A stretch of 64,000 nucleotides of DNA from an uncultured Gammaproteobacteria bacterium (GCA_964492425.1 CAZBKB010000005.1:12468-76467), one strand, 5' to 3'; shown: positions 7,251 to 34,487, counted from the first letter of the stretch. A program made the numbers and translations. The notes: generated by a model not told the origin, from the letters alone.

Positions 7251-7287
7251 ATCGGACCTTCTGATATATTCAAAAACAGCTGACATC

Positions 7288-18620: not shown

Positions 18621-20050
18621 AAAAAATCGAAATTATTATAATTGGAGCAATAATTTTGCTTGCCTTTTTACTTCGCCTCTACAAAATAGACAGGCCTCTT
18701 GCAGATTGGCATTCATGGCGACAGGCAGATACGGCGGCTGTTTCACGAAATTTTGTAAAGGAAGAATTCAATTTGCTAATCCCCAAATTCGATGACATGT
18801 CCAAACAAGCAAACGGCCTTGATAACCCCAATCGCTATCGTTTTGTAGAATTCCCTATATACAACGCAATAATTGCCGTTATATGGAAGATCACAAGCGT
18901 GCAAACATTATATGCCAGGCTTACAACTGTATTGTTTACCCTTTTTTCAACATTATTCTTATATTTAATAGTCAGAAAATTCTCATCTATTCTTACAGCA
19001 GCCTTATCTGCCTTTTTCTTCGCATCAATTCCATACAACATATTCTATTCGTCATCTATACTGCCTGGGCCCTTTATGGTTTTTTCAATTCTCGGACTAT
19101 ACTTTTTCTTCATCAAGTTCTTAGAAAATGAATCCACAATATTTCTGATTCTATCGGTACTTTTTGCCAACTTGGCCCTCTTGTCTTGGCCAATAGCAAT
19201 CTTCTTCTTCCTTCCTGTAATTTATCTCGCTTTCGAAAAATTCAAACTAAACATATTTAAAAATTTCAAACTTTGGGTCTTTACGATATCTTCAATTCTA
19301 CCGTTTTTTGCCTGGAGAATATGGATTCTAAATTTCCCACAAGGTATCCCAAATTGGCGTTTTGTAATAAACGAAGACAACATTCGTTTCAAAGGTGCCT
19401 TTTTTCGATGGATATTTGCGGAAAGGTTGGGAAATTTAATACTGGCCTTCGGTGGTGTACCTCTCTTTATATTGGGCGTGGTTCTAAAGCAGGGTAAAGA
19501 AAAGCTTTTTTACTATTCCATACTCGCCTCGGGCATGCTTTACGTTATTGTTTTTGCCTCAGGGAACGTTAGACACGATTATTATCAAGTTCCGCTTGTT
19601 CCAGCGCTGTCAATCTTAATGGCCAAAGGAACAGAAATACTCGTTAGCAGGAGGTCGAGTATTTTCAACAAGTATACAAGCATCATTATCACCATTTTCT
19701 TAATTTTTCTAATGTACGCATTTGGTTACCTTCAAGTACGAGGTTATTACTGGATAAACAAACCTCAAATTTTAGAAGCCGGTGCGGCAGTAGATCGACT
19801 TTTGCCCAAAGATGCAACAGTTATTGCTCCTTACAATGGTGATGCAGCTTTTCTATACCAGACTAACAGACACGGTTATCCTATAACAGATAGGTCACTT
19901 GAGGATTTTGTTAATCAAGGCACCAAGTATTTAGTATCCGTAGAACCCGATGACGAGGGTATCAAAAACTTGGCCGAAAAATGTAAAATCATAGAATCAA
20001 ATGCCAGATATGTTATTGTCGAAATGTCCAAAGAATGCCTAAATTTCTAG
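18617..20050 (+). CDS. Polytopic membrane protein, putative GT-C-like glycosyltransferase
   Basis: The start was chosen at GTG 18617 (GTGA overlap with the upstream stop). An ATG at 18557 would overlap by 64 nt. TM1 is followed by RPLADWHSWRQADTA and about 11 TM helices. Confidence 0.45.
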   Translation: MKKIEIIIIGAIILLAFLLRLYKIDRPLADWHSWRQADTAAVSRNFVKEEFNLLIPKFDDMSKQANGLDNPNRYRFVEFPIYNAIIAVIWKITSVQTLYARLTTVLFTLFSTLFLYLIVRKFSSILTAALSAFFFASIPYNIFYSSSILPGPFMVFSILGLYFFFIKFLENESTIFLILSVLFANLALLSWPIAIFFFLPVIYLAFEKFKLNIFKNFKLWVFTISSILPFFAWRIWILNFPQGIPNWRFVINEDNIRFKGAFFRWIFAERLGNLILAFGGVPLFILGVVLKQGKEKLFYYSILASGMLYVIVFASGNVRHDYYQVPLVPALSILMAKGTEILVSRRSSIFNKYTSIIITIFLIFLMYAFGYLQVRGYYWINKPQILEAGAAVDRLLPKDATVIAPYNGDAAFLYQTNRHGYPITDRSLEDFVNQGTKYLVSVEPDDEGIKNLAEKCKIIESNARYVIVEMSKECLNF

Positions 20051-21244: not shown

Positions 21245-22140
21245 AATTATCGATTGTCATTGTCTCCTATAACGTTCAAGAGCTTTTAGATAAATGTTTA
21301 AAATCCATATATATCGCTTCTAAAAATATCGACCATGAAATTTACGTTGTAGATAACAATTCCCAAGATGGAACAAAAGAGCTGATTATAAATAAACATC
21401 CGCGAGTGCGGTTAATTGCAAATACTCACAATATTGGTTTTTCAAAAGCTAATAACCAGGCAATCAAGTTTGCAAAAGGGGAATATGTCCTTATCTTAAA
21501 TCCGGACACTGTGCTCATGCCCGACACTCTTGTCAAAATGCTCAAGTTTATGGATCAAAAGGATGCAAAAGTAGCCATAGCAACATGTAAGATAGAGCTA
21601 CCCAGTGGCTTGCTCGATCGTGATTGCAGACGCAGTTTCCCAACTCCCGCAAGAGCCCTTACACACTTCACAGGACTTTCTAAAATATTCAGGGGAACAA
21701 AAATATTTGATTCCTACTATATGGGTTATATCTCGATTAACCAAGAAACTGAGGTTGACGCTTGTGTTGGTGCTTTTATGTTTATTAGGCGCAAAATCTT
21801 AAAGGAAGTAGGCAACTTTGATGAAGACTATTTTTTCTATGGTGAAGATTTGGATCTTTGTTATCGTATACGTCAACATAATTACAAAATTTTCTATACT
21901 CCAATTACCAAAATTATTCACCACAAAGGTGCGTCATCCGGCATCAAAAAACACTCAGCCGAATTATCTAAAGCACCTGAAGAGTCTAAAAAGAGGGCAA
22001 TTGTTGAATCAACACATGCAATGGAACTTTTTTATAAAAAACATTACAAAGGTAAATACCCCCTCTTTATTACGTTTGCAGTGATAATAGCGATTGAGAT
22101 TGTTAAAAATATAAGGCTTTTCAGGCATAATTTTTTATGA
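21241..22140 (+). CDS. Glycosyltransferase family 2
   Basis: LSIVIVSYNVQELL...YVVDNNSQDGT and LNPDTVL (DxD-like) motifs. ATGA overlap with the upstream gene. Confidence 0.75.
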   Translation: MKLSIVIVSYNVQELLDKCLKSIYIASKNIDHEIYVVDNNSQDGTKELIINKHPRVRLIANTHNIGFSKANNQAIKFAKGEYVLILNPDTVLMPDTLVKMLKFMDQKDAKVAIATCKIELPSGLLDRDCRRSFPTPARALTHFTGLSKIFRGTKIFDSYYMGYISINQETEVDACVGAFMFIRRKILKEVGNFDEDYFFYGEDLDLCYRIRQHNYKIFYTPITKIIHHKGASSGIKKHSAELSKAPEESKKRAIVESTHAMELFYKKHYKGKYPLFITFAVIIAIEIVKNIRLFRHNFL

Positions 22141-23237
22141 AGATTGGAATAGATGCAAGATTTGTGGGGCCCCAAGGAACAGGGCTAGGTAAATACACCG
22201 AAAAGCTAATCGAAAATCTTGAAAAAATCGATACAAGAAATCAATTTTATATCTTCCTGCGCCAAAGCAACTGGTCATTTCTAAAGTTGACAGGGGGAAA
22301 CTTTACAAAAGTTTTAGCAGACGTCCCCTGGTACTCCCTGGAAGAACAGATAAAAATGGCAGGGATTTATAAATCAAAACATTTAGATCTTCTGCATGTC
22401 CCCCACTTCAATGTTCCTATCCTTTACAACCTGGTGTTTATAGTTACAATACATGATTTAATACATCATAAATTTTCGCAGGAATCAACAACAACCAAAA
22501 ATCCGTTTATTTTCAAAATAAAAAGGTTTGCCTACAAAAGGATAATCACCCATGCTGTGACAAAATCCAAAAAAATATTTGTTCCTTCAAATTATGTTAA
22601 AGAAGAAATCATCAATAACTTTAACCTCGACGCTAAAAAAATTGTTGTAACTTATGAAGCTGCAGAAGAAGAATACTCACAAGGAACAAAATCAAAAGCT
22701 TCAAAATCAAACCAGATAATTTATGTAGGCAATACCTATCCTCATAAAAACATAGCGAAACTTCTGGAAGCTCTAAACATTTTAAAATCAGAAATTAAAA
22801 ATTTAAAATTGATCATCGTCTGTCCCCGGGATGTCTTTACAAATAGGCTGGCAAAAGAAATTACAGATAAGGGTTTAACCCAAGAAGTTGAAATTCTTCC
22901 TTATCAAAATGTAGATCAGCTAGTTAGAATTTTTGCAAAATCCAAGGCTTATATTTTTCCATCTCTGGAAGAAGGTTTCGGTATACCAGGTCTAAACGCT
23001 ATGGCCGCAGGCCTGCCAGTTATTGCATCAAATATTCCAACCTTAAAAGAAATCTACGAAAATGCGGCTATGTACTTTAATCCAAACGACCCAAAAGACA
23101 TTGCCGAAAAAATAAACCAGGTCATCGGCAGTTCAGATATCAGAAAAAGTTTGATCTTTGAAGGTGGGAAACAGGTAAAAAAATATTCATGGCTAAAAAT
23201 GACCAAAGAAACCCTTGCGGTTTACCGCTCAGTCTAA
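22137..23237 (+). CDS. Glycosyltransferase family 4
   Basis: FPSLEEGFGIPGLNAMAAGLPVIASNIPTLKEIYENAAMYFNP. Confidence 0.8.
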   Translation: MKIGIDARFVGPQGTGLGKYTEKLIENLEKIDTRNQFYIFLRQSNWSFLKLTGGNFTKVLADVPWYSLEEQIKMAGIYKSKHLDLLHVPHFNVPILYNLVFIVTIHDLIHHKFSQESTTTKNPFIFKIKRFAYKRIITHAVTKSKKIFVPSNYVKEEIINNFNLDAKKIVVTYEAAEEEYSQGTKSKASKSNQIIYVGNTYPHKNIAKLLEALNILKSEIKNLKLIIVCPRDVFTNRLAKEITDKGLTQEVEILPYQNVDQLVRIFAKSKAYIFPSLEEGFGIPGLNAMAAGLPVIASNIPTLKEIYENAAMYFNPNDPKDIAEKINQVIGSSDIRKSLIFEGGKQVKKYSWLKMTKETLAVYRSV

Positions 23238-23295
23238 TTTAACAAACACAGCTTTTCAATAGAAGAATGTTAGGACGTATAATCCCAACCTCAAG

Positions 23296-23460
23296 AAGAC
23301 AGCCCTCACATATGATCCTTCGACTTCGTTCAGAGCGACTGATTTCAATCTATTAGGTTTTTACTTTAGGCTGTGGAGATAGGATAATCAACATACTACT
23401 CCGACCAAATTTTAATGTCAATAATCAAAAAGTTGCAGACTAATCTATAACTTGTATAAT
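23296..23460 (+). repeat. Diverged copy (R0) of the cassette-junction module, including an outward promoter
   Basis: gatccttcgacttcgttcagagcgactgatttcaatcta ... tttaggctgtggagataggataatcaacatactac ... ttttaatgtcaataatcaaaaagttgcag aligns segment by segment with the R1/R3 modules (gatgacccttcaatttcattcagggtt ... tttgggctatggagataaggtgtttccactatagcac ... ttttctgtcaataatctaaaagttgacac). Confidence 0.5.
23432..23460 (+). promoter_or_regulatory. Candidate sigma70-like promoter with extended -10 (TTGCAG-17-TGTTATAAT)
   Basis: ttgcag at 23432-23437, a 17-nt spacer, then tgt+tataat at 23452-23460. This lies 17 nt upstream of the small ORF at 23478. Confidence 0.4.
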
Positions 23461-23477
23461 CTTTCATTAGCCCCGAT

Positions 23478-23639
23478 ATGACAGAGAGACAACAGCAACT
23501 AGCACGAATTTCTGAAACAAGAACACTATCAACTACAGATAGATTATCGCTCGCCTATTTAGCAAGACAAAATTTTGAGGAGGCAATTGAGATTGCAGCT
23601 CAAACCAAGGGAGGACATTCAAACAATTCTTGCAAGTGA
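23478..23639 (+). CDS. Small hypothetical ORF (53 aa), possibly a frameshifted remnant
   Basis: ATG 23478 to TGA 23639. A +1 frame continues as ILASDDEIAKQAVAYFGRV*, suggesting a decayed gene. No homology recognised. Confidence 0.2.
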   Translation: MTERQQQLARISETRTLSTTDRLSLAYLARQNFEEAIEIAAQTKGGHSNNSCK

Positions 23640-23709
23640 CGACGAAATTGCAAAGCAAGCAGTGGCATATTTTGGCCGAGTGTGAAAACAAAACTATCGG
23701 TGTGCCTTT

Positions 23710-24132
23710 TTAATTTGTATCGAGTGGGTATTGGCTTAAGTGCTTAACAAAGGGAAGATTTACAGCCTTAACAAATTTAGAGTCTGCAGTAAAAAGATCA
23801 CAATTATTTTCTTGAGCTAAGATTGCATATGAAGCATCGTAAACTGTAACCTTATGCTCTTTGGCAAATTTTAAACATTTGGGGAAAAAATCTGGAGTGG
23901 GATTAAATATCTCTATCTTGAAATTCACGAAAAGATTCCAAGCTGCACTTATATCTTTGAGCGTTAATTCAGCTTTAGAAGAAAGAACATTTGCAAGTTC
24001 ATACAAAAGGATGTCGGGAGCGATAACTTTTTGTTCACCTGCTAAAAACTTGTCCAGTAGTATCAAAGATACATGTCTTGTATCTTCTTCCCTTAGCCAT
24101 TTATAAATAATTGAAGTATCGGCTACTACCAT
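23710..24132 (-). CDS. vapC: PIN-domain ribonuclease toxin VapC
   Basis: MVVADTSIIYKWL (conserved Asp5), internal acidic residues and C-terminal FTADSKF. 140 aa. It overlaps the upstream antitoxin gene by 7 nt. Confidence 0.75.
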   Translation of the reverse strand: MVVADTSIIYKWLREEDTRHVSLILLDKFLAGEQKVIAPDILLYELANVLSSKAELTLKDISAAWNLFVNFKIEIFNPTPDFFPKCLKFAKEHKVTVYDASYAILAQENNCDLFTADSKFVKAVNLPFVKHLSQYPLDTN

Positions 24133-24383
24133 TTTCCTTCATATCTCATCTCTCTTAATGATTGAACTATGTCAAAATCTTTTAGCTTTCTTTTCAATAC
24201 TCTTGCGACCTTACGACGATTTGCATGAATTTGATTAACTTGGGTTTGAGAGCGAGTTTTATCTTCGGTGCGTATTTTTTCCCTAACTACTGCAGATAAG
24301 CTTTGACGTTTTTTGGCAGCTTCAGCTTTCAGTCTCAAGTAATCCTCCTCAGAAATTCTTATATTAGTAGTAACATAATTCAT
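24126..24383 (-). CDS. vapB: Ribbon-helix-helix type antitoxin (VapB-like)
   Basis: 85 aa. N-terminal beta-strand TNIRISEEDYLRLKAEAAKK (RHH pattern). It lies directly upstream of the PIN gene and overlaps it. Confidence 0.55.
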   Translation of the reverse strand: MNYVTTNIRISEEDYLRLKAEAAKKRQSLSAVVREKIRTEDKTRSQTQVNQIHANRRKVARVLKRKLKDFDIVQSLREMRYEGKW

Positions 24384-24384
24384 A

Positions 24385-24417
24385 ATACAATTGTATCATT
24401 GTATTGATATTTGTCAA
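24385..24417 (-). promoter_or_regulatory. vapBC promoter with palindromic operator
   Basis: On the minus strand, TTGACA (plus 24412-24417) is followed by a 16-nt spacer and TACAAT (plus 24390-24395). A perfect 12-bp palindrome atacaattgtat (24385-24396) overlaps the -10 and abuts the vapB ATG at 24383, so the transcript would be leaderless. Confidence 0.45.
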
Positions 24418-24453
24418 TTCTTCAACTAACACATATAATCTCAGTAATCAATA

Positions 24454-24660
24454 ATGAAGACTACCCTAGTGCATGATGACCCTTCGATAGACTCAGGGCA
24501 GTTGCTCAATCTCGAAGGTCTTTTTATTCTGAGCGAAGCAAAAATCAGAGACGAAGTTCTCTATTTGGGCTATGGAGATAAGGTGTTTCCACTATAGCAC
24601 TTGCAACTTTTCTGTCAATGCTACAAATTGACATCAAACCTGATGATATGTAATATGTGA
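24454..24660 (+). repeat. Cassette-junction module R1: remnant of the GT 5' end plus a conserved 114-bp block plus promoter
   Basis: It begins atgaagactaccctagtgcatgatgac (M K T T L V H D D, matching MKIALVHDDF of the GT at 28348). Positions 24506-24619 are 114/114 identical to 27547-27660. Confidence 0.7.
24628..24656 (+). promoter_or_regulatory. Near-consensus sigma70-like promoter driving cassette gene 1 (TTGACA-17-TAATAT)
   Basis: ttgaca at 24628-24633, a 17-nt spacer, then taatat at 24651-24656. The ATG at 24665 is only 8 nt downstream of the -10, so the mRNA would be leaderless or have a very short leader. Confidence 0.5.
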
Positions 24661-24664
24661 AACG

Positions 24665-25507
24665 ATGGTTAGAGAAAGAGACTACAAGCCAATAGAAATT
24701 CCGCAAACTGAGCCTCTTGTTATTCTCAGAAACCAGAAATTTTTCCCATTTTCAAATCTTGAATTACCTGAGGAAACAATAGGACATTTTGATTTTGCAA
24801 GCCAGGAGTTTCAGCTTCAAGAAGAAGATGGCATCACTACGGGTAGATTTCTGTATCAAGATGTGATGAGCAATGGTAACACGGCAATGTGGAACTTCCC
24901 TTTTCTTGCCGAAAAGTATTACACCTTAGGCTCTACAGAAGACGATCTAAAGCAATATACTGAGACATATCCTGACTCACCGCATAGGAGAATAATGTTT
25001 AAAGTTGCATTTGACCTTCCGAGGCCTATGGATCCAGAAAGTGAGTTCCGTAAGACGACTAGAATCAGAGTTGAAAATGGACAAACTGGAAATGTGTTTT
25101 ACGCAGTAGAGGCAAGGGCACAAGGTGGATATGACCGAACAAGATCCCCAAAAGATGGGCACTACGCCATACTTTACGATAGCTTCTACTACAAAGGAGA
25201 ACAGTGGGATGATCGTTTGAATAAACATGCTCACTTAGATATTCCAGAAGAAAGATGGCCTGAGATACATCAGCAGGTAGCAGATTATGAAGAAGATAAC
25301 TCCAAGCCTTACCCACAAGAGCTTGCAGACGCACATCGAAGAGTAAGAGAAGAGGATGATAGACGCTCTTATTTAATGCCATTTCGCTTGTCTATCATCA
25401 CGAAACCAGAAGTGGCAAGAGGTATTGCACTAACCATTGAGCAGGTTCCTATGGGTTCTGTAGATCTAAGTGTCAACACACCAGACCAAGTGTTGCACGG
25501 GCACTAA
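24665..25507 (+). CDS. Hypothetical protein (280 aa), cassette gene 1, no recognisable domain
   Basis: Clean ORF with visibly higher G+C than the flanking genes. Acidic and aromatic-rich. Flanked by junction repeats R1 and R2. Confidence 0.5.
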   Translation: MVRERDYKPIEIPQTEPLVILRNQKFFPFSNLELPEETIGHFDFASQEFQLQEEDGITTGRFLYQDVMSNGNTAMWNFPFLAEKYYTLGSTEDDLKQYTETYPDSPHRRIMFKVAFDLPRPMDPESEFRKTTRIRVENGQTGNVFYAVEARAQGGYDRTRSPKDGHYAILYDSFYYKGEQWDDRLNKHAHLDIPEERWPEIHQQVADYEEDNSKPYPQELADAHRRVREEDDRRSYLMPFRLSIITKPEVARGIALTIEQVPMGSVDLSVNTPDQVLHGH

Positions 25508-25694
25508 TCAATTAACCTTAAAATCATCCTCAGCTAAAAAATTGTTAAAATCAGATAGTGAAAATTGCACTAGTACACGATGACTTCAATCTCGAAGGTT
25601 TTTTGTTTGGGGCGTGTTGATAAGACAATTCCATAGTACCACTTGCAAGTTTTAAGTCAAGAAATCAAAATGATGCAAGTTAAAATAGAAGTCT
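25508..25694 (+). repeat. Cassette-junction module R2 (3' repeat plus GT 5' remnant plus diverged 5' module)
   Basis: 25513-25589 matches 28303-28379 (native GT upstream plus first codons) at 75/77. It then carries caatctcgaaggtttttt... and a diverged ccatagtaccacttgcaagtttt. Confidence 0.65.
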
Positions 25695-26873
25695 ATGCCA
25701 GAAAGATTTGAAAGACGAGTCACAAGACCAGTTCAAGTAGGAGAGATAACTATTGGTGGGGATAACCCCATTGCTGTGCAATCAATGGTAACTAGGGAAA
25801 CTCAGGATATTCAAGGAGTAACGGAACAAATCAAACAACTCAACCTCGCAGGTGCTGAAATTGTTAGAGTAACGACACCTACAATTCAAGACGCAGAGTC
25901 GCTTGCTGAAATAAAAGTTGAACTTAAAAGACGATATAAAGATGTACCACTTGTTGCAGATGTTCATCATCAAGGCACAAACATTGCAGTAGAGGCTTCA
26001 AAACATGTTGAGAAAGTTCGCATAAACCCTGGGCTTTTTGTTTACCATAAGAGAACATCCCAGGAAGAATATACACACAATGAGATTGATGAACAAAGGA
26101 ATGAAATTGACTCTGCCTTATCTCCACTTATAAGTGCATGTAGAGAAAGAGGTGTTGCCCTGAGGGTTGGAGTAAATCATGGCAGCCTTGCAGAAAGACT
26201 TACTGTCATGTATGGCGACACACCAGAAGGAATGGTTCAGTCCGCAATGGAATATCTAAAAATATGCGAGGGCTATGGCTTCAAAGATGTAGTGGTTTCG
26301 TTAAAAGCTAGTAGAGCTCCCACCATGATTGCAGCCAATAGGCTAATGGTTGAGCGAATGGATGAGGAGAATATGAACTACCCCATCCATTTAGGTGTTA
26401 CAGAAGCTGGCAAAGACCAATACGCAAGGATTAAAAGCACTTACGGAATTGCAACTCTACTCTCAGAAGGTGTTGGGGATACTATTCGGGTTTCCTTAGC
26501 AGAAGACCCAGTTAAAGAGTTATCCGTTTGTTATGACATCCTTCAAGCAGGAGGCCTTAGGCGTACCAAATCTGAACCAATAGCTTGTCCAGGTTGTGGA
26601 AGAACTAAGTTTGACCTTGATACCGTCACTGATGACATATTTGGTGCAACTGAGCATTTAAAAGGTTTAAGTATTGCTGTGATGGGGTGCATTGTAAACG
26701 GGCCTGGGGAAATGGCAGATGCTGATTATGGCTATGTTGGTCTGGGTGGTGGCAAAATAGCTCTATACAGAGGAAAAGAAGTAATCAGGACTGTCCAGCA
26801 AGAAGAAGCAAGAGATTCTTTAATTGCACTTATAAAAGAAGATGGAAAATGGATAAACCCACCTTCTAATTAA
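25695..26873 (+). CDS. ispG: 4-hydroxy-3-methylbut-2-enyl diphosphate synthase IspG/GcpE
   Basis: Diagnostic IspG blocks: PIAVQSMV, AEIVRVT, VPLVADVHH, RINPG, VGVNHGSL, HLGVTEAG, LSEGVGDTIRVSL, and the [4Fe-4S] Cys ligands in ACPGCGR and GCIVNGPGE. Collinear with E. coli IspG. Confidence 0.85.
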   Translation: MPERFERRVTRPVQVGEITIGGDNPIAVQSMVTRETQDIQGVTEQIKQLNLAGAEIVRVTTPTIQDAESLAEIKVELKRRYKDVPLVADVHHQGTNIAVEASKHVEKVRINPGLFVYHKRTSQEEYTHNEIDEQRNEIDSALSPLISACRERGVALRVGVNHGSLAERLTVMYGDTPEGMVQSAMEYLKICEGYGFKDVVVSLKASRAPTMIAANRLMVERMDEENMNYPIHLGVTEAGKDQYARIKSTYGIATLLSEGVGDTIRVSLAEDPVKELSVCYDILQAGGLRRTKSEPIACPGCGRTKFDLDTVTDDIFGATEHLKGLSIAVMGCIVNGPGEMADADYGYVGLGGGKIALYRGKEVIRTVQQEEARDSLIALIKEDGKWINPPSN

Positions 26874-26905
26874 CCCTAAAATCTTCCTCAGCTAAAAATT
26901 GCGTG
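26871..26905 (+). repeat. Partial copy of the 3' junction repeat after ispG
   Basis: taaccctaaaatcttcctcagctaaaaattgcg matches the start of the 28303/25513 repeat (2 mismatches) and then diverges. Confidence 0.4.
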
Positions 26906-26918
26906 CTAAAATGCCTGA

Positions 26919-27239
26919 GTGGACACATCGTTTGTCAGAAGAAAAGTTGAAAGCGGAGAATATGACCTTTCAAGCCATGCTCACCGAGAAAGACAAGAAG
27001 AACAAATTACAGTAGCAGAAATAGAGCAGGCTCTCCTTACAGGTGATATAATTGAAAAGTATCCAAAAGACGAGAGAGGCGAAAGCTGTTTAGTTGCAGC
27101 AAAAACAGAAAATAAACCAATGCATATAGTGTGTGGAAAACGAGACAGCAGGTTATTAATAGTTACAGTCTACAGACCAAAACTGCCTACTTGGGAAAAT
27201 TATAAACAAAGAACAAAGGAGTTGAAAAGCCGTGTCTAA
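26919..27239 (+). CDS. DUF4258-like small protein (putative toxin-like partner)
   Basis: 106 aa. SSHAHRERQEEQITVAEIEQALLTGDIIEKYP...ESCLV.G...RPMHIVCG...IVTVYRP resembles the DUF4258 family. GTG start. It overlaps the downstream Zn-finger gene by 8 nt. Confidence 0.45.
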   Translation: MDTSFVRRKVESGEYDLSSHAHRERQEEQITVAEIEQALLTGDIIEKYPKDERGESCLVAAKTENKPMHIVCGKRDSRLLIVTVYRPKLPTWENYKQRTKELKSRV

Positions 27240-27471
27240 TTGTTACTTTTGCAAAGGAAAAACCGAAATTAGAAATGTGAACGTGGACTTCAGATGGAAG
27301 GATAAGCTTTTCGTCTTTAAAAGTGTTCCCGTAGAGGTTTGTATCCAATGCGGAGAAAAGTACTACAGTGCAGAAATTTCCAAAAAACTAGATGATTTTG
27401 TCAAAAAACAATCAGAAGCAAAGATCAGTCCACAAAATACCATCCAAGTCCCCGTTTTCAATTGGCAATAA
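27232..27471 (+). CDS. YgiT-type (MqsA N-terminal-like) zinc-finger protein
   Basis: 79 aa. CYFCKG ...(32)... CIQCGEKYY forms a four-Cys zinc ribbon, as in YgiT-type antitoxin-like proteins that commonly pair with DUF4258. Confidence 0.5.
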   Translation: MSNCYFCKGKTEIRNVNVDFRWKDKLFVFKSVPVEVCIQCGEKYYSAEISKKLDDFVKKQSEAKISPQNTIQVPVFNWQ

Positions 27472-27489
27472 ATCTGTTGCTATAATCTT

Positions 27490-27711
27490 CTCATGCGGAT
27501 TGCGTTAGTACACGATGACCCTTCAATTTCATTCAGGGTTATAAATTCAATCTCGAAGGTCTTTTTATTCTGAGCGAAGCAAAAATCAGAGACGAAGTTC
27601 TCTATTTGGGCTATGGAGATAAGGTGTTTCCACTATAGCACTTGCAACTTTTCTGTCAATAATCTAAAAGTTGACACGTAACTAATCCCAGGTATAGAAT
27701 CAGCCTGTTTT
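27490..27711 (+). repeat. Cassette-junction module R3 (GT 5' remnant plus conserved 114-bp block plus promoter)
   Basis: atgcggattgcgttagtacacgatgac (M R I A L V H D D). 27547-27660 is identical to 24506-24619. Confidence 0.7.
27671..27700 (+). promoter_or_regulatory. Sigma70-like promoter driving cassette gene 3 (TTGACA-18-TAGAAT)
   Basis: ttgaca at 27671-27676 and tagaat at 27695-27700. The ATG at 27712 follows with no Shine-Dalgarno sequence. Confidence 0.45.
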
Positions 27712-28305
27712 ATGACAGTAGAGCAACAGCACGAAATTAGAGGCTGGTTGGATGTTATTGCATCTATTCGACAAAAGAGAGCAGAGGCATCACGAGCTGC
27801 TTATTCCTTAAAAGATGTTAGCAGAAAAGATTACGATGGTTTAGATGTGGAGCGATTTGGAGATATTACCACAGGTTTATCAATGGTACTAAAACCAGAG
27901 GAAATAGATGAAGCCCCTCTTGAAATACAAATGGTCCTGAACGATTTAGGTTTAACCTCCGAAGACCAAATTCAAGCCCAGCTAATATTGAAACAATCAG
28001 ACGGCTCACGTGGTTATGATTTTGTACTTAAGCCTACTGAATTAGTAGGAGGGAGAATGGGAATACTTTTAGACAGCAATGGCAGTCACGCAGTTTTAGG
28101 TGGTCCAAGATCAAGGAGCTTTGATGGCATACATCAAACTGTTGAAACATATGAAGGTAAATCAGCAGAAATCTACGAGAACTATAGATTTGGTATGGGA
28201 GATGCTCAAAATCCAAACTTAGTTGAAATTCTATATTCGTGTGTTAAATGGTTCGCAACCTTAGCAGAAAATAGACGAAAGACTCCACCAGAACCTATTA
28301 GTTAA
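27712..28305 (+). CDS. Hypothetical protein (197 aa), cassette gene 3, no recognisable domain
   Basis: Clean ORF with higher G+C than the host genes. Flanked by R3 and the native junction copy. Confidence 0.45.
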   Translation: MTVEQQHEIRGWLDVIASIRQKRAEASRAAYSLKDVSRKDYDGLDVERFGDITTGLSMVLKPEEIDEAPLEIQMVLNDLGLTSEDQIQAQLILKQSDGSRGYDFVLKPTELVGGRMGILLDSNGSHAVLGGPRSRSFDGIHQTVETYEGKSAEIYENYRFGMGDAQNPNLVEILYSCVKWFATLAENRRKTPPEPIS

Positions 28306-28400
28306 CCCTAAAATCATCCTCAGCTAAAAAATTGTTAAAATCAGATAGTGAAAATTGCACTAGTACATGATGACTTCACTCAGGCTGGCGGGGCAGAAAG
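28303..28400 (+). repeat. Native target copy: upstream region plus first about 17 codons of the GT4 gene, shared by all junction modules
   Basis: taaccctaaaatcatcctcagctaaaaaattgttaaaatcagataGTGaaaattgcactagtacatgatgacttcactcaggctggcggggcag. Copies or remnants lie at 25513, 26871, 24454 and 27500. Confidence 0.6.
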
Positions 28401-29472
28401 TCTGTTTGCCACAATTGCTGCCCTTTATCCGAATGCGCCGATTTACACTTCCCTAGTCAATTGGCGCAAACTGCCCGCATCAATCGATAGAAACAGGATC
28501 CGACCCTCATTTATGCAAAAAATCCCATTTGCCGCAAGCTTTTTTAAACTCCTTTTGCCGCTTTACCCGCTAGCCTTTGAAAGTTTCGACTTTGACAACT
28601 ACGACCTTGTCATTTCTTCGACAACTCGTTTTGCCAAATCGATAATCACAAAACCCAAAACTTGTCATATTTCTTATTTAAATAGCACACCTAGATTTTT
28701 GTGGGAAGAGGACAAAAAAAATGTCTATTTGCCAAAAATTTTGCTGTTTCTCTTAAGCCCCTTTTTTCGTTGGTTAAAACGCTGGGACTTATCATCAGCC
28801 CAAAGAGTTGATTATTTTCTTGCCAATTCCCAAAACGTAAGTCAAAAAATCCTCAAAATATACAGACGAAAAAATAAAGTTATTTATCCTTTTGCCGACA
28901 CCACTTTCTTTACTCCCGATAGAATCCATAATTGGAAACTTAAAAGCAAGAATTATTACCTTATTGTTACCAGACTTGTTAAATGGAAAAAAATAGACAT
29001 CGCAATTGAGGCGGTGAATGATATAGGTGCAAATTTAATAATTATCGGTGACGGGCCTGACAAGGGGAGGCTGGAGGGAATAGCGGTCAGGGACCAGCGG
29101 TCAGGAACCAGAGATCAGGTTACTTTTATCGGCAAGATAACACGAGAGGAGCTAAAAAGCTGTTACCAGAACTGCAGGGCGCTTATTGTGACACAAGAAG
29201 AGGATTTTGGTATTGCAACTGTCGAGGCTCAAGCTTGCGGTACTCCGGTTATAGCTTATGGGAAAGGTGGCACAGTCGAGATCATCACAGACAAAAAAAC
29301 GGGTGTATTCTTTAGTTCTCAAACCATGTCTTCGCTAAAAGATGCAATTTCAACGTCTTCTAGGTTAAAATATGATAAGTTAGCTATAAGACACAATGCT
29401 CTTCGTTTCACAAAAACTAACTTTGAAAAAATATTTAAGGAAATCGTAAGACAATATGCCAAATCAGCCTGA
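28348..29472 (+). CDS. Glycosyltransferase family 4 (target gene of the cassette array)
   Basis: GTG start with no Shine-Dalgarno sequence. The N-terminus is MKIALVHDDFTQAGGAESL. GT4 C-terminal block VTQEEDFGIATVEAQACGTPVIAYGKGGTVEIITDKKTGVFF. Confidence 0.8.
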   Translation: MKIALVHDDFTQAGGAESLFATIAALYPNAPIYTSLVNWRKLPASIDRNRIRPSFMQKIPFAASFFKLLLPLYPLAFESFDFDNYDLVISSTTRFAKSIITKPKTCHISYLNSTPRFLWEEDKKNVYLPKILLFLLSPFFRWLKRWDLSSAQRVDYFLANSQNVSQKILKIYRRKNKVIYPFADTTFFTPDRIHNWKLKSKNYYLIVTRLVKWKKIDIAIEAVNDIGANLIIIGDGPDKGRLEGIAVRDQRSGTRDQVTFIGKITREELKSCYQNCRALIVTQEEDFGIATVEAQACGTPVIAYGKGGTVEIITDKKTGVFFSSQTMSSLKDAISTSSRLKYDKLAIRHNALRFTKTNFEKIFKEIVRQYAKSA

Positions 29473-30556
29473 TCTCAAAATCGCTCTTTTTTGCGGTGGT
29501 AGTGGTACCCGTATGTGGCCTATGAGTCGCAAAAATTTACCTAAACAGTTTCAACCACTTATTGAAAACACGTCTACTTTCGAAATGATGATCACGCGTC
29601 TCACTAAAAAGTATCCGCACTCAAGCATATTCCCAGTAACAACCAGAGATAATGTTCAATGGATAGTAAAACTCGCCCCTGAAATTCCGCTGGAAAATAT
29701 CATTATTGAACCTGAGGTGAGAGATACAGCAGCAGCGGTTGGACTATCAGCCGCAGTTCTTGATAAAAAATTTGACAACCCTAATGTTCTCGGCCTTTGG
29801 AGTGATCACGTTGTAAGAAACGAAGAAGAATTTATAAGGGCTATTGAGCTTGCAAACGAAACAGCAAACGAGATGGACAAGTTTATAGAAATTGGTGTGC
29901 GCCCCACATTCCCCAGTGTCGCATTAGGATATTTAAAAGTCGGCAAGATGATTAAAAGATCAAACGGTATGGGCATTTTTGAATTTGTCACCCAAATAGA
30001 AAAGCCTGCTTACAAAGATGCTAAAAAATTTGTGGAATCTTGGGAATACCTTTGGCATATTGGCTATGCTCTTTGGTCAGCCAAAAAGATGCTTGGCTAT
30101 TATGAAAGATTTTTCAAGGAAGGCTGGGAACCTCTCATAAAAATACAAAAAGCCTGGGGAACACCTGATCAGGAGAAAATATTACAGAGAGAATATATCA
30201 ATATACCCAAAAACTCTATCGACTTTGCTGTTAATTCCCACCTAACAGGGGAGGATCAAATTGTTATTTCTACAGATCTCGGCTGGCGTGATGTTGGCAC
30301 TTGGAATGAGTTAAAAGATGAAATGGCGGCTAACCCTCGCGACAATATTATTCAGGGTGATGTAATAGATTTGGATCTGAAAGACTGCCTTGTTTACTCA
30401 TCACACAAACAAAAAATTATCGCGGCAATTGGTCTTGAGGGGCTGATAATTGTAGATACAGAGGACGCACTCTTGATCTGCCCAAAAGATAGGACTCAAG
30501 ATGTTAAGCAAATTATTGACAAACTCAAAGAGAGTAAAAGAGAAAGTCACCTTTAA
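29456..30556 (+). CDS. manC: Mannose-1-phosphate guanylyltransferase (NTP_transferase family)
   Basis: N-terminal KIALFCGGSGTRMWPMSRKNLPKQF (GGxGTRLWPLS signature). About 360 aa. It overlaps the upstream GT by 17 nt. Confidence 0.7.
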   Translation: MPNQPDLKIALFCGGSGTRMWPMSRKNLPKQFQPLIENTSTFEMMITRLTKKYPHSSIFPVTTRDNVQWIVKLAPEIPLENIIIEPEVRDTAAAVGLSAAVLDKKFDNPNVLGLWSDHVVRNEEEFIRAIELANETANEMDKFIEIGVRPTFPSVALGYLKVGKMIKRSNGMGIFEFVTQIEKPAYKDAKKFVESWEYLWHIGYALWSAKKMLGYYERFFKEGWEPLIKIQKAWGTPDQEKILQREYINIPKNSIDFAVNSHLTGEDQIVISTDLGWRDVGTWNELKDEMAANPRDNIIQGDVIDLDLKDCLVYSSHKQKIIAAIGLEGLIIVDTEDALLICPKDRTQDVKQIIDKLKESKRESHL

Positions 30557-30565
30557 TTCCACTGC

Positions 30566-31216
30566 ATGTTTTACGACTTCACAAAAAGAATAATTGATAT
30601 TGTTGGAAGTATAATTGCACTTTTGATCGTCTCCCCTGTATTTGTTACTTTCGCAGTACTGGTTAAAATCACATCGACTGGCCCTATTTTTTACACACCA
30701 GTTAGAGTAGGCAAAGACGGAAGGCCTTTTAAAATGCTGAAATTTAGAAGTATGCAAATGTATAAAATCGGCGGAGTTTTAGTCCATGCTCAGAAATATC
30801 TTGACACAAACCCAAAGCTTAAAAAGGAGTATCAAAAAAATAGTTTCAAACTTACAAATGATCCGCGAGTTACGCCGATTGGGAAAATACTACGTAGGTT
30901 TTCAATAGATGAATTACCACAACTTATTAATATACTTACAGGAGACATGTCGCTGGTTGGCCCACGAGCATATCAGCAGGATGAGCTGCTTCATCAGCAA
31001 AAAGTTTATCCCAATACCGCAAAGTTCGTTAAAATCATTCTGAATGCCCGCCCGGGGGCATCCGGTCCCTGGCAGGTTTCCGGTAGATCATTTATTAACT
31101 TTGACACTAGAGTTCAAATGGATGCAACTTATGTTAAAAGAAGATCCACTCTCTACGATTTTTGGATAATCATCAGGACGCCGATTGCCATGATAACCGG
31201 AACAGGTGCCGTTTAA
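30566..31216 (+). CDS. Initiating phosphoglycosyl transferase (Bac_transf family, PglC/WbaP C-domain-like)
   Basis: IIDIVGSIIALLIVSPVF (re-entrant helix), RPFKMLKFRSM, and DELPQLINILTGDMSLVGPRA (conserved catalytic DE and PRP region). Confidence 0.75.
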   Translation: MFYDFTKRIIDIVGSIIALLIVSPVFVTFAVLVKITSTGPIFYTPVRVGKDGRPFKMLKFRSMQMYKIGGVLVHAQKYLDTNPKLKKEYQKNSFKLTNDPRVTPIGKILRRFSIDELPQLINILTGDMSLVGPRAYQQDELLHQQKVYPNTAKFVKIILNARPGASGPWQVSGRSFINFDTRVQMDATYVKRRSTLYDFWIIIRTPIAMITGTGAV

Positions 31217-33022
31217 ATGAAAAAGTATAAGAGAATAATTCTAATATTAATCTTATTATTTTTCTTTTTTGGGGTATTTACCGCATTTAGTTTGTTTAAT
31301 GCTTACAAATCAGCAAAACACGTCTCTGCCGCTCTTAATTCTCAAGACCTTGATGCTGCTAAAAATTCTATAAAAAAGGCAAGAAATGAGCTCAAGATGG
31401 CCAATACGGCACTTATCGTCTTTACCCCGCTCAGATTCGTACCTCTGGTTGGTTGGTATATAGCAGATGTCCAGCGTGGTACATATGCCGCGGTTGCCAC
31501 TCTCGATGCGGCACAAGTTATGGCAGAAGCAATTACACCTTACGCGGACATTCTAGGCCTTAGGGGTCAAGGCACTTTTTTAGGTGGCACAGCCCAGGAG
31601 CGTGTTGCCAGTATCATTGAGACACTTTCCAAAGTTTCACCGCAGCTTAATGAAATTGGAGACAATTTAAAAGAAGCAAAGGATCAAATTAGTAAAATCC
31701 AAGCATGGAAATATCCGAATTTTCTACCTGGCAGACCAAAAGATAAAATAGAATCTGCCCAAACCGCCATTATTCAGTTTGAAACTTTAATAGTAGATGC
31801 CAAGCCTTTCATAGAGGTCTTGCCTGAAATAATGGGCCAAGGTAGTGAGAAAACTTATCTTGTACTGTTGCAAAACGACAAGGAGTTACGGCCAACAGGA
31901 GGCTTTATTACAGCATATGCAATACTGAAGGTTAACAAAGGTGATGTAAAAATAGAGCTTTCTGAAGATATTTATAAACTCGACGATACCCTAACAAAAA
32001 GAGTTGCGGCACCAGACCATATAAAAAAATACTTAGAGGTGCAGTCACTTAACTTGCGCGACTCAAATATATCACCAGATTATTTGTCATCCATCAAACT
32101 TTTTGAAGACCTTTACCAATACAGTACTGCGAAAAAGCAATATGAAGGTATTATCGCTTTGAATACAAACTTTGTCCTTAAAATGATAAAAGCGCTTGGG
32201 CCAATTGAGATTGATGGCACTAAATATACTGCGGAGGTAATAGACGAATGCGCCTGTCCGCAAATTATTTATCAGCTAGAACAATACACTGGGCAGCCTA
32301 CGCCTTTCCAAAGGGAAGACAGAAAGGGTATCATTGGCGTTCTTATGCAGCAGCTTCTGGCAAAAACTTTTGAAGCACCCCAGTCTACTTGGCCAGATAT
32401 TTTAGGAGCGGTTGTATCTTCACTTCAGGAAAAAGACCTGCTACTTTATTTTGAAAATATCTCAACCCAAGAGGCAGTTGAAAAAGTTAATTTTGCTGGC
32501 CGCATTTATCAATACGACAGTGATTTTTTACACATCAACGAAAGTAATCTTGGTGGAGCAAAATCGAACATTTACATAAAGGAAAAAGTTAAACAGGAAA
32601 TAAAAAGAGATAAAGATATTACTATAAAGAAAGTGACTATCGAATATAAATATCCTCGCAAAATGGACAACTGTAGCCTGGAGCGCAAAGGTGGTCTTTG
32701 TCTTGCCGGAATTTACAGAGACTGGATTCGTCTTTATGTTCCCAAGGGTTCAAAGATCATCGCAGCGAATGGAAGCGAAGCTCCCCTAGAAACCTATGAC
32801 GAGCTAGGCAAAACTGTGTTTGAAGGTTTTTTAACTGTGCGTCCCGAAGGTACTGCCAAATTTGAAATAGAATATTCACTGCCGATTGAGTTCTCAAAGG
32901 AGTATAAACTTCTCGTGCAAAAACAACCAGGGGCTCCGGCACATGAATACGAAATAAATGCTTTTGGCAAAAGAATATCATTCCCCCTTAATACTGATAA
33001 AGAATTTATTGCAAAAATTTAA
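31217..33022 (+). CDS. Membrane-anchored extracytoplasmic protein (601 aa), possibly DUF4012 family
   Basis: Single N-terminal TM followed by a large soluble domain. The size, architecture and position next to a phosphoglycosyl transferase resemble DUF4012 proteins. The family call is from memory and is not motif-verified. Confidence 0.35.
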   Translation: MKKYKRIILILILLFFFFGVFTAFSLFNAYKSAKHVSAALNSQDLDAAKNSIKKARNELKMANTALIVFTPLRFVPLVGWYIADVQRGTYAAVATLDAAQVMAEAITPYADILGLRGQGTFLGGTAQERVASIIETLSKVSPQLNEIGDNLKEAKDQISKIQAWKYPNFLPGRPKDKIESAQTAIIQFETLIVDAKPFIEVLPEIMGQGSEKTYLVLLQNDKELRPTGGFITAYAILKVNKGDVKIELSEDIYKLDDTLTKRVAAPDHIKKYLEVQSLNLRDSNISPDYLSSIKLFEDLYQYSTAKKQYEGIIALNTNFVLKMIKALGPIEIDGTKYTAEVIDECACPQIIYQLEQYTGQPTPFQREDRKGIIGVLMQQLLAKTFEAPQSTWPDILGAVVSSLQEKDLLLYFENISTQEAVEKVNFAGRIYQYDSDFLHINESNLGGAKSNIYIKEKVKQEIKRDKDITIKKVTIEYKYPRKMDNCSLERKGGLCLAGIYRDWIRLYVPKGSKIIAANGSEAPLETYDELGKTVFEGFLTVRPEGTAKFEIEYSLPIEFSKEYKLLVQKQPGAPAHEYEINAFGKRISFPLNTDKEFIAKI

Positions 33023-33028
33023 CATTTT

Positions 33029-33661
33029 ATGAATTTTAAATCAGAGGGAATTGTTCTCAGTAGAAAAAGTTTTCAGGAGGCAGATAGACTGGTTACCTTT
33101 TATACTAGAGATTACGGCAAAATTACCTGTATCGCCAAAGGTGTTAAAAGACCAAAATCAAGAAAAGCTGGACACTTGGAGCTTGCAACTTACTGTACTA
33201 TTTTTGTGGTCAAAGGCAAGAACATGGATATATTAACTGAAGTTGAAACTAAAAAAGCCTTTGGTCTGGAAAATCTTCCCAGCCAAAAAACGAATGAGAT
33301 ATATCATTTACTGGAACTTATTGACAACTTAACACCCACAAATCAAAAGAACAAAGAAGTCTTTGACTTGCTTGTAAGCTTTTTAAAAGTTATAAAAGAA
33401 AACAACAATTACGAGCTTCTTCTTGTTGCATTTAAAATCAAACTCTTGTCTATGCTTGGCTTTTTCTCCAGTAAAAATTTAAAAGATTCAAAATCTAAAG
33501 ATTTGCTGCAAAACTTTGAAACAAAAGACTTACAAACACTTCATAAAAAATTTAAAACAGGCTATAAATATTTGAAACTTTTAGCGTTTCTTGATAGCAT
33601 TATTGAAAAGATAACAGAGCGGAAACTTAAAACAAGTCGCTTTATACATGCCCAAATCTAA
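33029..33661 (+). CDS. recO: DNA repair protein RecO (short form)
   Basis: N-terminal OB-fold signature SEGIVLSRKSFQEADRLVTFYTRDYGKITCIAKGVKR... then HLLELID. 210 aa. Confidence 0.6.
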   Translation: MNFKSEGIVLSRKSFQEADRLVTFYTRDYGKITCIAKGVKRPKSRKAGHLELATYCTIFVVKGKNMDILTEVETKKAFGLENLPSQKTNEIYHLLELIDNLTPTNQKNKEVFDLLVSFLKVIKENNNYELLLVAFKIKLLSMLGFFSSKNLKDSKSKDLLQNFETKDLQTLHKKFKTGYKYLKLLAFLDSIIEKITERKLKTSRFIHAQI

Positions 33662-34487
33662 AAGAAATCTTTACATTCTTGCTGCAGCGGCATTTGTTTT
33701 TATTTTTGCAGCAATATATTTTTTATTTGTTTTTCAAAAATCTCCAAAATTATCAAAAGTTGATAGATCAGCCTTTGAAGTAAAATCAATAATAGACATA
33801 GAAGTTACAAAAAGGCCTTTTGTAACACTTACCCCTACAGCACCTGGTGCAGAAATCATTATCTCCATAGAAAATATGAGCGAGTTTGATAATATTGAAT
33901 ACGAACTTACATACTTAGCAGATAATCCTCAAATTCCAGGAGAAAAGATTCAAAGAGGCTCAACTGGAATTGATGTTGACACAAAATCGCCCAAATATAA
34001 GAAATCGATGCTGCTGGGAACTGCCTCAAGAGGGGTATCCAATCCAGACAGGGGGATAGAGGAGGGTAAATTAACACTTCATATGTTCAAAGGTAATACT
34101 GAATACCAATCAGAAACTCCGTGGTATTTATTCGAGATAGGCCTTACTACAACCGAAATCTCAACACCTGATGGCAATTTAAGTATAAAAACCCCTAAAC
34201 TAACTAAAGATTATTTTGCGATTGTGTCAGATACGGTTGGTCTTCCTCCAGAAGGGGACATTGATAAGGGTAAAGCAGAATTACCAATTTATGGGGTCTT
34301 TTCAACTACTCCTAAATTCACCCAAAAAGCAGATCTTACACTTAGGGTAAAAGGTCAAAATTCAAAACTTTATATCTATAACAATCAAAATAACACTTGG
34401 GGTAATATTGACTCAACTCAAGCGGGAGAGAACATCAAAGCCAAAATTGAAATTTTCTCAACATATGTGGTAGTCTCCCAAAAATGA
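33648..34487 (+). CDS. Membrane-anchored hypothetical protein (signal-anchor plus beta-rich ectodomain)
   Basis: N-terminal hydrophobic anchor (ILAAAAFVFIFAAIYFLFVF). No recognisable domain. Confidence 0.4.
   Translation: MPKSKRNLYILAAAAFVFIFAAIYFLFVFQKSPKLSKVDRSAFEVKSIIDIEVTKRPFVTLTPTAPGAEIIISIENMSEFDNIEYELTYLADNPQIPGEKIQRGSTGIDVDTKSPKYKKSMLLGTASRGVSNPDRGIEEGKLTLHMFKGNTEYQSETPWYLFEIGLTTTEISTPDGNLSIKTPKLTKDYFAIVSDTVGLPPEGDIDKGKAELPIYGVFSTTPKFTQKADLTLRVKGQNSKLYIYNNQNNTWGNIDSTQAGENIKAKIEIFSTYVVVSQK

Follow-up and report, generated by a model that had tools for sequence, protein, structure and literature searches.

A probable stack of decayed integrative elements in the 5′ end of a glycosyltransferase gene of Candidatus Curtissbacteria

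We have analyzed a 64-kb stretch of DNA (CAZBKB010000005.1:12468-76467; hereafter the window) from a genome of Candidatus Curtissbacteria, a lineage of the candidate phyla radiation (CPR). An array of small gene units lies in it between the stop codon of one glycosyltransferase (GT) gene, GTup (23237), and the start of another, GT4 (28348-29472). This array is, in all likelihood, a stack of four decayed site-specific integrative elements, which were inserted successively at an attachment (att) site in codons 6-10 of GT4. A previous sequence-only reading of the window had proposed repeated site-specific insertion into the 5′ end of GT4 with regeneration of the target, and had suggested a search for empty sites and variable content. 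Both were found in relatives: one locus (L010) has an empty site and more than 30 others carry different cargo at the same place, which bears out the proposal. The further idea of an undescribed, recombinase-free cassette-capture system is not upheld, as a cognate tyrosine integrase adjoins the same target in relatives, integrase tails persist in three units of the window, and intact islands of 7-9 kb carry the same conserved module at their other end. What the array documents is a familiar type of event in a lineage that has received little study; it points to no new cassette-capture system or recombination principle.

Anatomy of the array

The region from 23.3 to 28.4 kb of the window consists of four units of 0.9-1.9 kb, each bounded by a copy of the GT4 promoter and first 9-10 codons that is fused to a module of ~95 nt (copies M0 to M3). 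Unit bounds were defined as 23317-24480 (U1), 24481-25589 (U2), 25590-27519 (U3) and 27520-28379 (U4). The repeats listed in the sequence-only reading exist at or near the positions that it gave. Segments 24506-24619 and 27547-27660 are 100% identical across 114 nt, and 25512-25591 matches 28302-28381 with 96% identity across 80 nt. Two further, diverged copies of the module occupy 23340-23460 and 25581-25693 (nhmmer E 1e-24 to 2e-27), and 26861-26912 is a partial copy of the right-end repeat. Three GT 5′ remnants mimic the GT4 start, VKIALVHDDFTQAGGAE: MKTTLVHDD at 24454, VKIALVHDD at 25558 and MRIALVHDD at 27493; the first two had been placed correctly and the third at 27500. A fifth, decayed remnant (23293-23316), with its start codon changed from ATG to AAG, lies ahead of M0. 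The repeats are limited to this region, with none elsewhere in the window. A 19-nt module motif gives three matches versus 0.13 expected by chance, and a 55-nt degenerate module pattern gives three versus 0.00 expected. The features are as follows, with coordinates and strand.

22137-23237 (+): GTup, GT4-family glycosyltransferase, last gene of the upstream operon and left flank of the hotspot (Pfam Glycos_transf_1 1.9e-31; orthologues flank the variable gap in relatives)
23270-23316 (+): decayed promoter (TATAAT) and GT 5′ remnant, putatively the oldest att site, start ATG to AAG (aligns with the 24427-24480 remnant)
23317-23460 (+): module M0 (extra segment and module), diverged left end of unit 1 (nhmmer E=1e-24; ~72% identity to M2)
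23478-23639 (+): orf53, a short open reading frame (ORF) that may be a cargo gene remnant (ORF list; without family match)
23710-24383 (-): VapBC-type toxin-antitoxin pair (PIN 23710-24132, RHH 24126-24383), in the slot and on the strand of the integrase (Pfam PIN 2e-14; RHH_1 0.0046, below the Pfam cut-off), with its own promoter-like site at 24417-24390
24427-24480 (+): promoter (TATAAT) and GT 5′ remnant MKTTLVHDD, right end of unit 1 and putative att site for unit 2
24481-24664 (+): left end of unit 2, with a 25-nt extra segment, M1 (24506-24619), leftward promoter (24618-24591) and rightward promoter (24628-24656)
24665-25507 (+): orf280, orphan cargo gene (without family match)
25508-25543 (-): 3′ tail of a deleted int2-type integrase gene, 11 codons and stop, …NFLAEDDFKVN* (translation, compared with int2 C-termini)
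25544-25589 (+): promoter-like TGTTAAAAT and GT 5′ remnant VKIALVHDDF, right end of unit 2 and putative att site for unit 3
25590-25694 (+): module M2, left end of unit 3, directly after GATGACTTCA (nhmmer E=1.9e-27; 89% identity to L006 8223-8329)
25695-26873 (+): ispG (GcpE) cargo gene (Pfam GcpE 4e-120; NCBIfam TIGR00612 440 bits versus a cut-off of 280)
26866-26901 (-): integrase 3′ tail remnant, …QFLAEEDFRVN*
26919-27471 (+): DUF4258/MqsA-like toxin-antitoxin pair, in the former integrase slot of unit 3 (Pfam DUF4258 1e-21; MqsA_antitoxin 0.0013, below the Pfam cut-off)
27477-27519 (+): promoter-like TGCTATAAT and GT 5′ remnant MRIALVHDD (ATG at 27493), right end of unit 3 and putative att site for unit 4
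27520-27711 (+): left end of unit 4, with an extra segment, M3 (27547-27660), leftward promoter (27659-27632) and rightward promoter (27671-27700)
27712-28305 (+): orf197, orphan cargo gene (without family match; its cluster holds only itself)
28298-28333 (-): integrase 3′ tail remnant, …NFLAEDDFRVN*
28334-28379 (+): putatively element-supplied promoter-like TGTTAAAAT and first 10 codons of the working GT4, holding the att core, ~ACAYGATGACTTCA
28348-29472 (+): GT4 glycosyltransferase, the target gene, intact and with a conserved N-terminus (Pfam Glycos_transf_1 7.5e-29; orthologues in 22 loci)

Contigs of four other assemblies (L036, L056, L057 and L058) match 25187-34081 at 99.98-100% and cross M3 and the right-end repeat, so misassembly can be dismissed for this part of the array; the left part, 23238-25186, has been seen in the present contig only. 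The G+C content of the cargo, which had been described as visibly higher than that of the host genes, is raised only slightly and inconsistently, at 0.34-0.42 compared to a window mean of 0.37. The description holds for orf280 (0.42) and ispG (0.417) and fails for the PIN (0.34), RHH (0.35) and MqsA (0.36) genes, with GT4 itself at 0.40.

The hotspot and its integrases

The comparison set comprises 60 related loci, cited here by L numbers. A genome scan with the GT4 protein gave 25 loci, mostly from Candidatus Curtissbacteria, of which 22 have a full-length orthologue. Gene order is conserved as GTm3-GT2-GTup-gap-GT4-mannose-1-P guanylyltransferase (MPG)-sugar transferase. The gap at the empty site of L010 measures 2 nt, and the GTup stop abuts the GT4 start (TAAGTG). 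Occupied gaps elsewhere span 1.5-9.6 kb, and their ORFs, almost all different, include NUDIX, histidine phosphatase, glycerophosphotransferase, ZIP transporter, HAD, P-type ATPase and PIN genes. The GTup/GT4 junction is an integration hotspot in Candidatus Curtissbacteria. It lies inside a very long cell-envelope polysaccharide cluster (1-23237 and 28348 to ~35800 in the window) with many GT genes, a Bac_transf sugar transferase and DUF4012; a 210-aa gene with RecO domains, which may mark the end of this cluster, is found downstream of DUF4012 in L053-L056.

The point of insertion can be read from six loci (L005, L011, L029, L040, L043 and L045), in which the native GT start directly adjoins GTup, as at the empty site, before the module breaks it after …HDD. 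This narrows the insertion point to a core of ~14 nt, and ACAYGATGAC(TTCA) is present at every boundary. At L008, a DUF4258/MqsA unit with an MRIALVHDD end is still joined to an intact GT4; U4 of the window is inserted exactly there, a placement that agrees with insertion at the att site nearest the target. The DUF4258/MqsA pair occupies the same position in L008, L018, L034 and L035, and MqsA only in L040. Shared cargo is 75-92% identical, compared to 55-77% for the flanking core genes. Two other origins were considered for the hotspot and rejected: a phage origin, since the module pattern has zero matches in 2.9 million viral contigs, and a tRNA or tmRNA target, since the window contains neither.

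At least seven genomes have an integrase gene beside the target. This gene, int1, is divergent from GT4 and codes in L004, L007, L012 and L014 for a 339-aa protein of the Phage_integrase family (Pfam Phage_integrase 2e-28 in L004). It lies ~50-70 nt from the replaced 5′ end of GT4 in these four and in L053, L054 and L055, three longer contigs with int1 homologues, and the replacement at int1 loci reads MSYQPK[VI]ALVHDD. The islands of L053-L055 carry the module at their far end, accompanied in two of them by a GT 5′ remnant: the module is at 18986-19066 and the remnant at 19061-19088 in L053 (element of ~9.1 kb), and at 18371-18458 and 18453-18480, respectively, in L054 (~8.5 kb); in L055 the module is at the contig end. 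One gene from the module, each of these islands has a second tyrosine recombinase gene, int2, and both int1 and int2 are Xer-like. At L005 the module follows straight after a decayed MSYQPK-type GT 5′ end, and integrase-bearing and integrase-less units therefore use the same core.

The units of the window contain traces of int2. The right-end repeat that follows each cargo stop, TTAACCCTAAAATCATCCTCAGCTAAAAAATTG, reads …NFLAEDDF(R/K)VN* on the minus strand and matches the C-termini of int2 (…SDDFKVN* and …KDYRVN*); the same tail motif lies inside the intact int2 genes of L054 and L062. Such tails, consisting of the last 11 codons and the stop, are present in three units (25508-25543, 26866-26901 and 28298-28333), including the segment at 26871-26903 that had been read as a partial copy of the att region. 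In L028, L030, L032, L037 and L052 the corresponding position is taken by longer int2 remnants (31-57 aa), and in L028 and L037 a Fic-type two-gene module takes up the rest of the integrase slot. Thus, the units are integrase-deleted derivatives of islands, not elements originally without a recombinase. The idea that the right-end repeat is a homologue of the int1-GT4 intergenic arm was dropped, as the repeat is the 3′ tail of int2.

The only recombinase gene of the window (57472-58488), which had been named as an example of a recombinase to look at, is Xer-like, 30% identical to int1 and directly downstream of ftsZ (56149-57252). It probably encodes a housekeeping chromosome-dimer resolvase rather than an island integrase. 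We rejected it as the cognate enzyme because of its low identity to int1 and its location beside ftsZ; a role in trans is possible but unneeded. Additional integrase genes occur further upstream in L007 (5336-5500, minus strand, a 55-aa fragment 65% identical to int1) and L014 (655-1629, minus strand, a full int2-type gene), which indicates that islands are stacked there too.

The conserved module and its promoters

In total, 33 distinct copies of the module were collected in the comparison set, from six loci of the GT4 scan, 27 metagenome contigs retrieved by means of a degenerate module pattern, and the islands L053-L055. All copies with visible flanking genes are at the GTup/GT4 junction, each immediately preceded by a GT 5′ remnant wherever that sequence is available. 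The most conserved part is an extended -10 promoter on the minus strand (TTGACA-16/17-TGnTAnnnT), directed toward the att core. This leftward promoter is kept in 31 of the 33 copies, 25 of them with the TG, and its -10 letters vary (TATAGT, TAGTAT, TACTAT); it scores 11/12 both at 27659-27632 and at 24618-24591. The sequence-only reading had described instead a near-consensus rightward promoter as the feature of the module. Such sites do exist in M1 (TTGACA-17-TAATAT at 24628-24656, 10/12) and M3 (TTGACA-18-TAGAAT at 27671-27700, 11/12), whereas the promoter scan gives no passing rightward site in M0 and M2. Across the set, a predicted rightward site scoring at least 9 of 12 accompanies 18 of the 33 modules.

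The identical block of M1 and M3 has sharp edges and extends over 114 nt from the start of the module to the -35 element of the leftward promoter, while the flanking extra segments, promoters and cargo are unrelated. These edges suggest gene conversion between module copies, although acquisition from a common source could also account for them. A role of the module as an attC-like hairpin or a known RNA was rejected: RNAalifold on 12 aligned copies gives 0 pairs and an energy of 0, Rfam gives no match in the window at gathering thresholds, and no covariation is visible by eye between the two variable blocks of the module.

At the right ends of the units, TGnTAnAAT sites precede the GT start by 6-9 nt, which fits a need to re-promote GT4 after its separation from the GTup operon. 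No Shine-Dalgarno sequence lies between this site and the start codon at 28334-28350, 27477-27495 or 25544-25560, and one of the starts is GTG. Because the promoter-like sites are so close to the starts, with no Shine-Dalgarno sequence between, GT4-type starts would appear to be served by leaderless or near-leaderless transcripts.

Some module copies are interrupted. An insertion of ~45 nt that contains a hairpin (…TTCTGAGCGAAGCAAAAATCAGAG…) is present in about a third of them, at 24524-24568 and 27565-27609 in the window and in L013, L028, L029, L030, L037, L040 and L041. L008 and L054 have palindromic insertions (CCTGCCGGCAGG…) instead, about 25 nt deeper in the module. Similar hairpins, GAGCGAAGC and ATTCTGAAACAAGTTCAGAAT, recur in intergenic DNA of L006, L018 and L041, and the inserted hairpins look like small repeats of Curtissbacteria that resemble miniature inverted-repeat transposable elements. 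In a subset of copies (24481-24505, 27520-27546 and 23317-23340 in the window; L008, L027, L031 and L045), an additional segment of 25-30 nt (CCTTCGATnnACTCAGGG…) separates the GATGAC core from the module, and a 7-bp inverted repeat (CCTTCGA/TCGAAGG) links this segment to the start of the module.

Proposed origin, alternatives, related systems and cargo

In the scheme that we favor, the parent of the array would be an island of 7-9 kb. Its left end would be the module with divergent promoters, followed by a variable cargo slot, the Xer-like int2 on the opposite strand, further cargo that is often defensive, and int1 abutting the right end. From the right end, GT4 would receive a new promoter together with its first ~9 codons, so that the target would keep working once cut from its operon. 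A circular form would integrate at the core, generating attL (old GT 5′ end and module) and attR (new GT 5′ end and the rest of GT4), and later arrivals would enter an existing att copy, resulting in tandem accretion. All units of the window would then have lost their integrase by deletion, three retaining its last 11 codons and two acquiring a toxin-antitoxin pair in its slot. What remains would resemble cis-mobilizable elements (CIMEs): “cassettes” of module, promoter, cargo, integrase tail, and promoter with GT 5′ end. Judging from their placement, int1 and/or int2 are likely to catalyze integration. The leftward promoter of the module may read across the joined ends of the circle into the integrase gene, which would be turned on after excision. 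Junction promoters of insertion sequence circles and the circularization-dependent expression of Tn916 are parallels to such an arrangement.

Several points weigh against this scheme. The activity of the integrases on the att site is deduced from position only, and the evidence tying the module to an integrase comes from three loci. The 64-kb window has no int1- or int2-type integrase ORF, and the right ends of its units differ from the MSYQPK right end of the int1 type. A search for an intact minimal element (module-cargo-int2-GT 5′ end) yielded none, the int2 contexts of L059-L062 being too short to decide. No excised circle, circle junction or polymorphic array was seen for this strain, and all four other assemblies show the same arrangement. 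Simple decay alone leaves three observations unexplained: diverse cargo between the same two conserved ends, conservation of the module in units without an integrase, and the sharp-edged 100% identity of M1 and M3.

These observations also bear on an alternative that we consider unlikely, namely that the mini-units are working, non-autonomous cassettes that are excised and re-inserted in trans by int1 or int2 of a co-resident or incoming island. The two-promoter module and the integrase-tail end would then be kept by selection, in what would be a gene-capture array similar to that of integrons and based on a classical tyrosine integrase, which we likewise judge improbable. In its favor, every unit keeps both att-bearing ends, and the module is strongly conserved over the 33 copies even where the integrase is lacking. 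Single genes of many different kinds are enclosed as cargo by one and the same pair of ends, shared cargo equals or exceeds the flanking core genes in similarity, and M1 equals M3. Mobilization of CIMEs in cis or in trans is, moreover, documented in streptococci (PMC5704250). However, the four assemblies of the strain show no circle junction and no array polymorphism, integrase remnants range from 11 to 57 codons among loci, as if by progressive decay, M0 and its GT remnant are visibly degenerating, and toxin-antitoxin genes in the integrase slot fit stabilized relics. It is doubtful that the CPR harbor a live capture array of this kind, with non-autonomous single-gene cassettes, each bearing a conserved bidirectional-promoter module and an att core within the 5′ end of a protein gene, that are shuffled in trans by classical Xer-like integrases of sister islands, and with a leftward promoter that activates the integrase only in the circle.

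Very improbable is an origin without site-specific recombination, through homologous recombination, unequal crossing-over or gene conversion between modules and GT 5′ ends as conserved flanks, with shuffling and duplication of the variable region, as at capsule and O-antigen loci. The position within a long polysaccharide cluster, the sharp-edged M1/M3 identity and the existence of gap genes without module or GT remnant in L002, L003, L009, L015 and L016 would suit such an origin. The version of the GT 5′ end, however, differs from unit to unit (MKTTL-, VKIAL-, MRIAL-, MSYQPK-), as expected from imported attP arms rather than local duplication, the junction is always at the same ~14-nt core, and an integrase adjoins the target in seven genomes and leaves its tails inside units. 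As for assembly artefacts (a contig that is chimeric or in which repeats have collapsed), the repeats, 77-114 nt long, are near assembly k-mer length and other contigs (L036, L057 and L058) end at or near them, but the agreement of four independent assemblies through M3 and the right-end repeat, together with the same architecture in dozens of unrelated metagenome-assembled genomes and metagenomes, leaves this explanation a negligible chance.

Decayed integrative elements of the type favored here have close counterparts. The islands and prophages with a dusA-associated integrase (DAI; Farrugia et al. 2015) enter a protein gene at its 5′ end, for which they substitute sequence of their own (PMC4482086). 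Like these, the Curtissbacteria islands have a tyrosine integrase gene at a single position within the 5′ end of a conserved protein gene, an element-supplied replacement of that end, putative promoters before and after integration, and variable cargo (PMC4482086). They differ in target and host (a GT4 glycosyltransferase in CPR versus dusA in Proteobacteria) and in having two Xer-like integrases per intact island. They are also stacked in tandem and mostly decayed to 1-2 kb, and their excision is putative.

SXT/R391 integrative and conjugative elements (ICEs), which target prfC, similarly integrate site-specifically at the 5′ end of a protein-coding gene and form tandem arrays there (PMC4542580). 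SXT elements are, in contrast, conjugative and 79-110 kb in size, whereas those described here measure 1-9 kb, lack transfer genes and occur in another host lineage. The SXT element reportedly also provides a new promoter and N-terminal codons, an observation that goes back, it is said, to Hochhut and Waldor in 1999.

CIMEs and their tandem accretion are known from ICESt1 and ICESt3 of Streptococcus thermophilus (Pavlovic 2004; Bellanger 2011), as summarized in the review PMC5704250. For streptococci it is established that elements decay to CIMEs, which lack an integrase and are flanked by att sites, and that incoming elements then accrete with them; the present units likewise retain attL and attR and have lost their integration genes (PMC5704250). 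In the window, att copies bound the units, no integrase ORF is present, and the module is shared with attL of the int1/int2 islands L053-L055. Unlike streptococcal CIMEs, the units are much smaller, often consist of a single gene with its own promoter, and have toxin-antitoxin pairs in place of the integrase. The streptococcal CIMEs and ICEs target the 3′ end of fda.

Integron arrays are similar in that small units form an ordered array beside one recombination site, most of them being single genes, many without known function or of toxin-antitoxin type, with target-proximal insertion suggested here by the comparison of L008 with the window. Integron cassettes are mostly promoterless and expressed from a common Pc promoter, whereas the present units carry promoters, have boundaries that are copies of the 5′ end of a protein gene, and hold integrase remnants. 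An integron was rejected, in agreement with the sequence-only reading, as the units carry predicted promoters, no attC-like fold is present and no IntI was identified: scores against NCBIfam TIGR02249 are 71.5 bits for int1, 72-79 for int2 and 56.5 for the window recombinase, compared to a cut-off of 265. Integrative mobile elements exploiting host XerCD at dif (IMEX) were rejected because the target is the 5′ end of a GT gene, the family has its own integrases, the units hold integrase remnants and the Xer-like recombinase of the window shares only 30% identity with int1. The locus thus has the sequence-level features of gene-end islands and CIMEs, and lacks those that define integrons.

What is new is the host lineage, the target gene, the layout with two integrases, the conserved bidirectional-promoter end and the miniaturization with toxin-antitoxin genes replacing the integrase. 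A literature search found no paper pairing Curtissbacteria with an integrase. Mobile elements of CPR/Patescibacteria are poorly described, and this locus offers a clean case with relatively abundant material: a genome whose site is empty, islands that are still intact, and products of decay in graded stages. From it one can see how small genomes gain defense genes, toxin-antitoxin pairs and orphan genes at one hotspot while keeping an essential-looking cell-envelope gene. The defined att core and the two candidate integrases are possible site-specific tools for organisms without genetics.

Two of the cargo genes in the window are orphans. Neither orf280 (280 aa) nor orf197 (197 aa) has a match in Pfam, NCBIfam, PADLOC or PHROG; the only match to orf280 among 5.8 billion proteins is itself, and the cluster of orf197 contains itself only. 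The two proteins show weak mutual similarity (E=0.002). The ispG gene (25695-26873) is complete and stands alone as island cargo, with no other gene of the methylerythritol phosphate (MEP) pathway adjoining; the sole other IspG match in the fetched loci is on a Treponema contig (L022, 34% identical).

Toxin-antitoxin pairs recur in the integrase position next to the GT 5′ end, as Fic-type pairs in L037 (1712-2524) and L028 (1580-2404), HicAB in L053/L054, and VapBC (23710-24383) and DUF4258/MqsA (26919-27471) in the window. Their presence in this slot fits a stabilization of decayed islands. The GT4 5′ end is also a defense-island hotspot in Curtissbacteria, as the integrase-bearing islands located there carry defense-type genes. 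The L053-L055 islands have SIR2 and SNase cargo (SIR2_2 and SNase, L053 12023-14356), and L007 has an AAA_15/AAA_21 ATPase with a UvrD helicase (5714-8888, Gabija-like). A Shedu SduA_C gene is found in L061 (3100-4266), and a HEPN gene in L004 (2546-3100).

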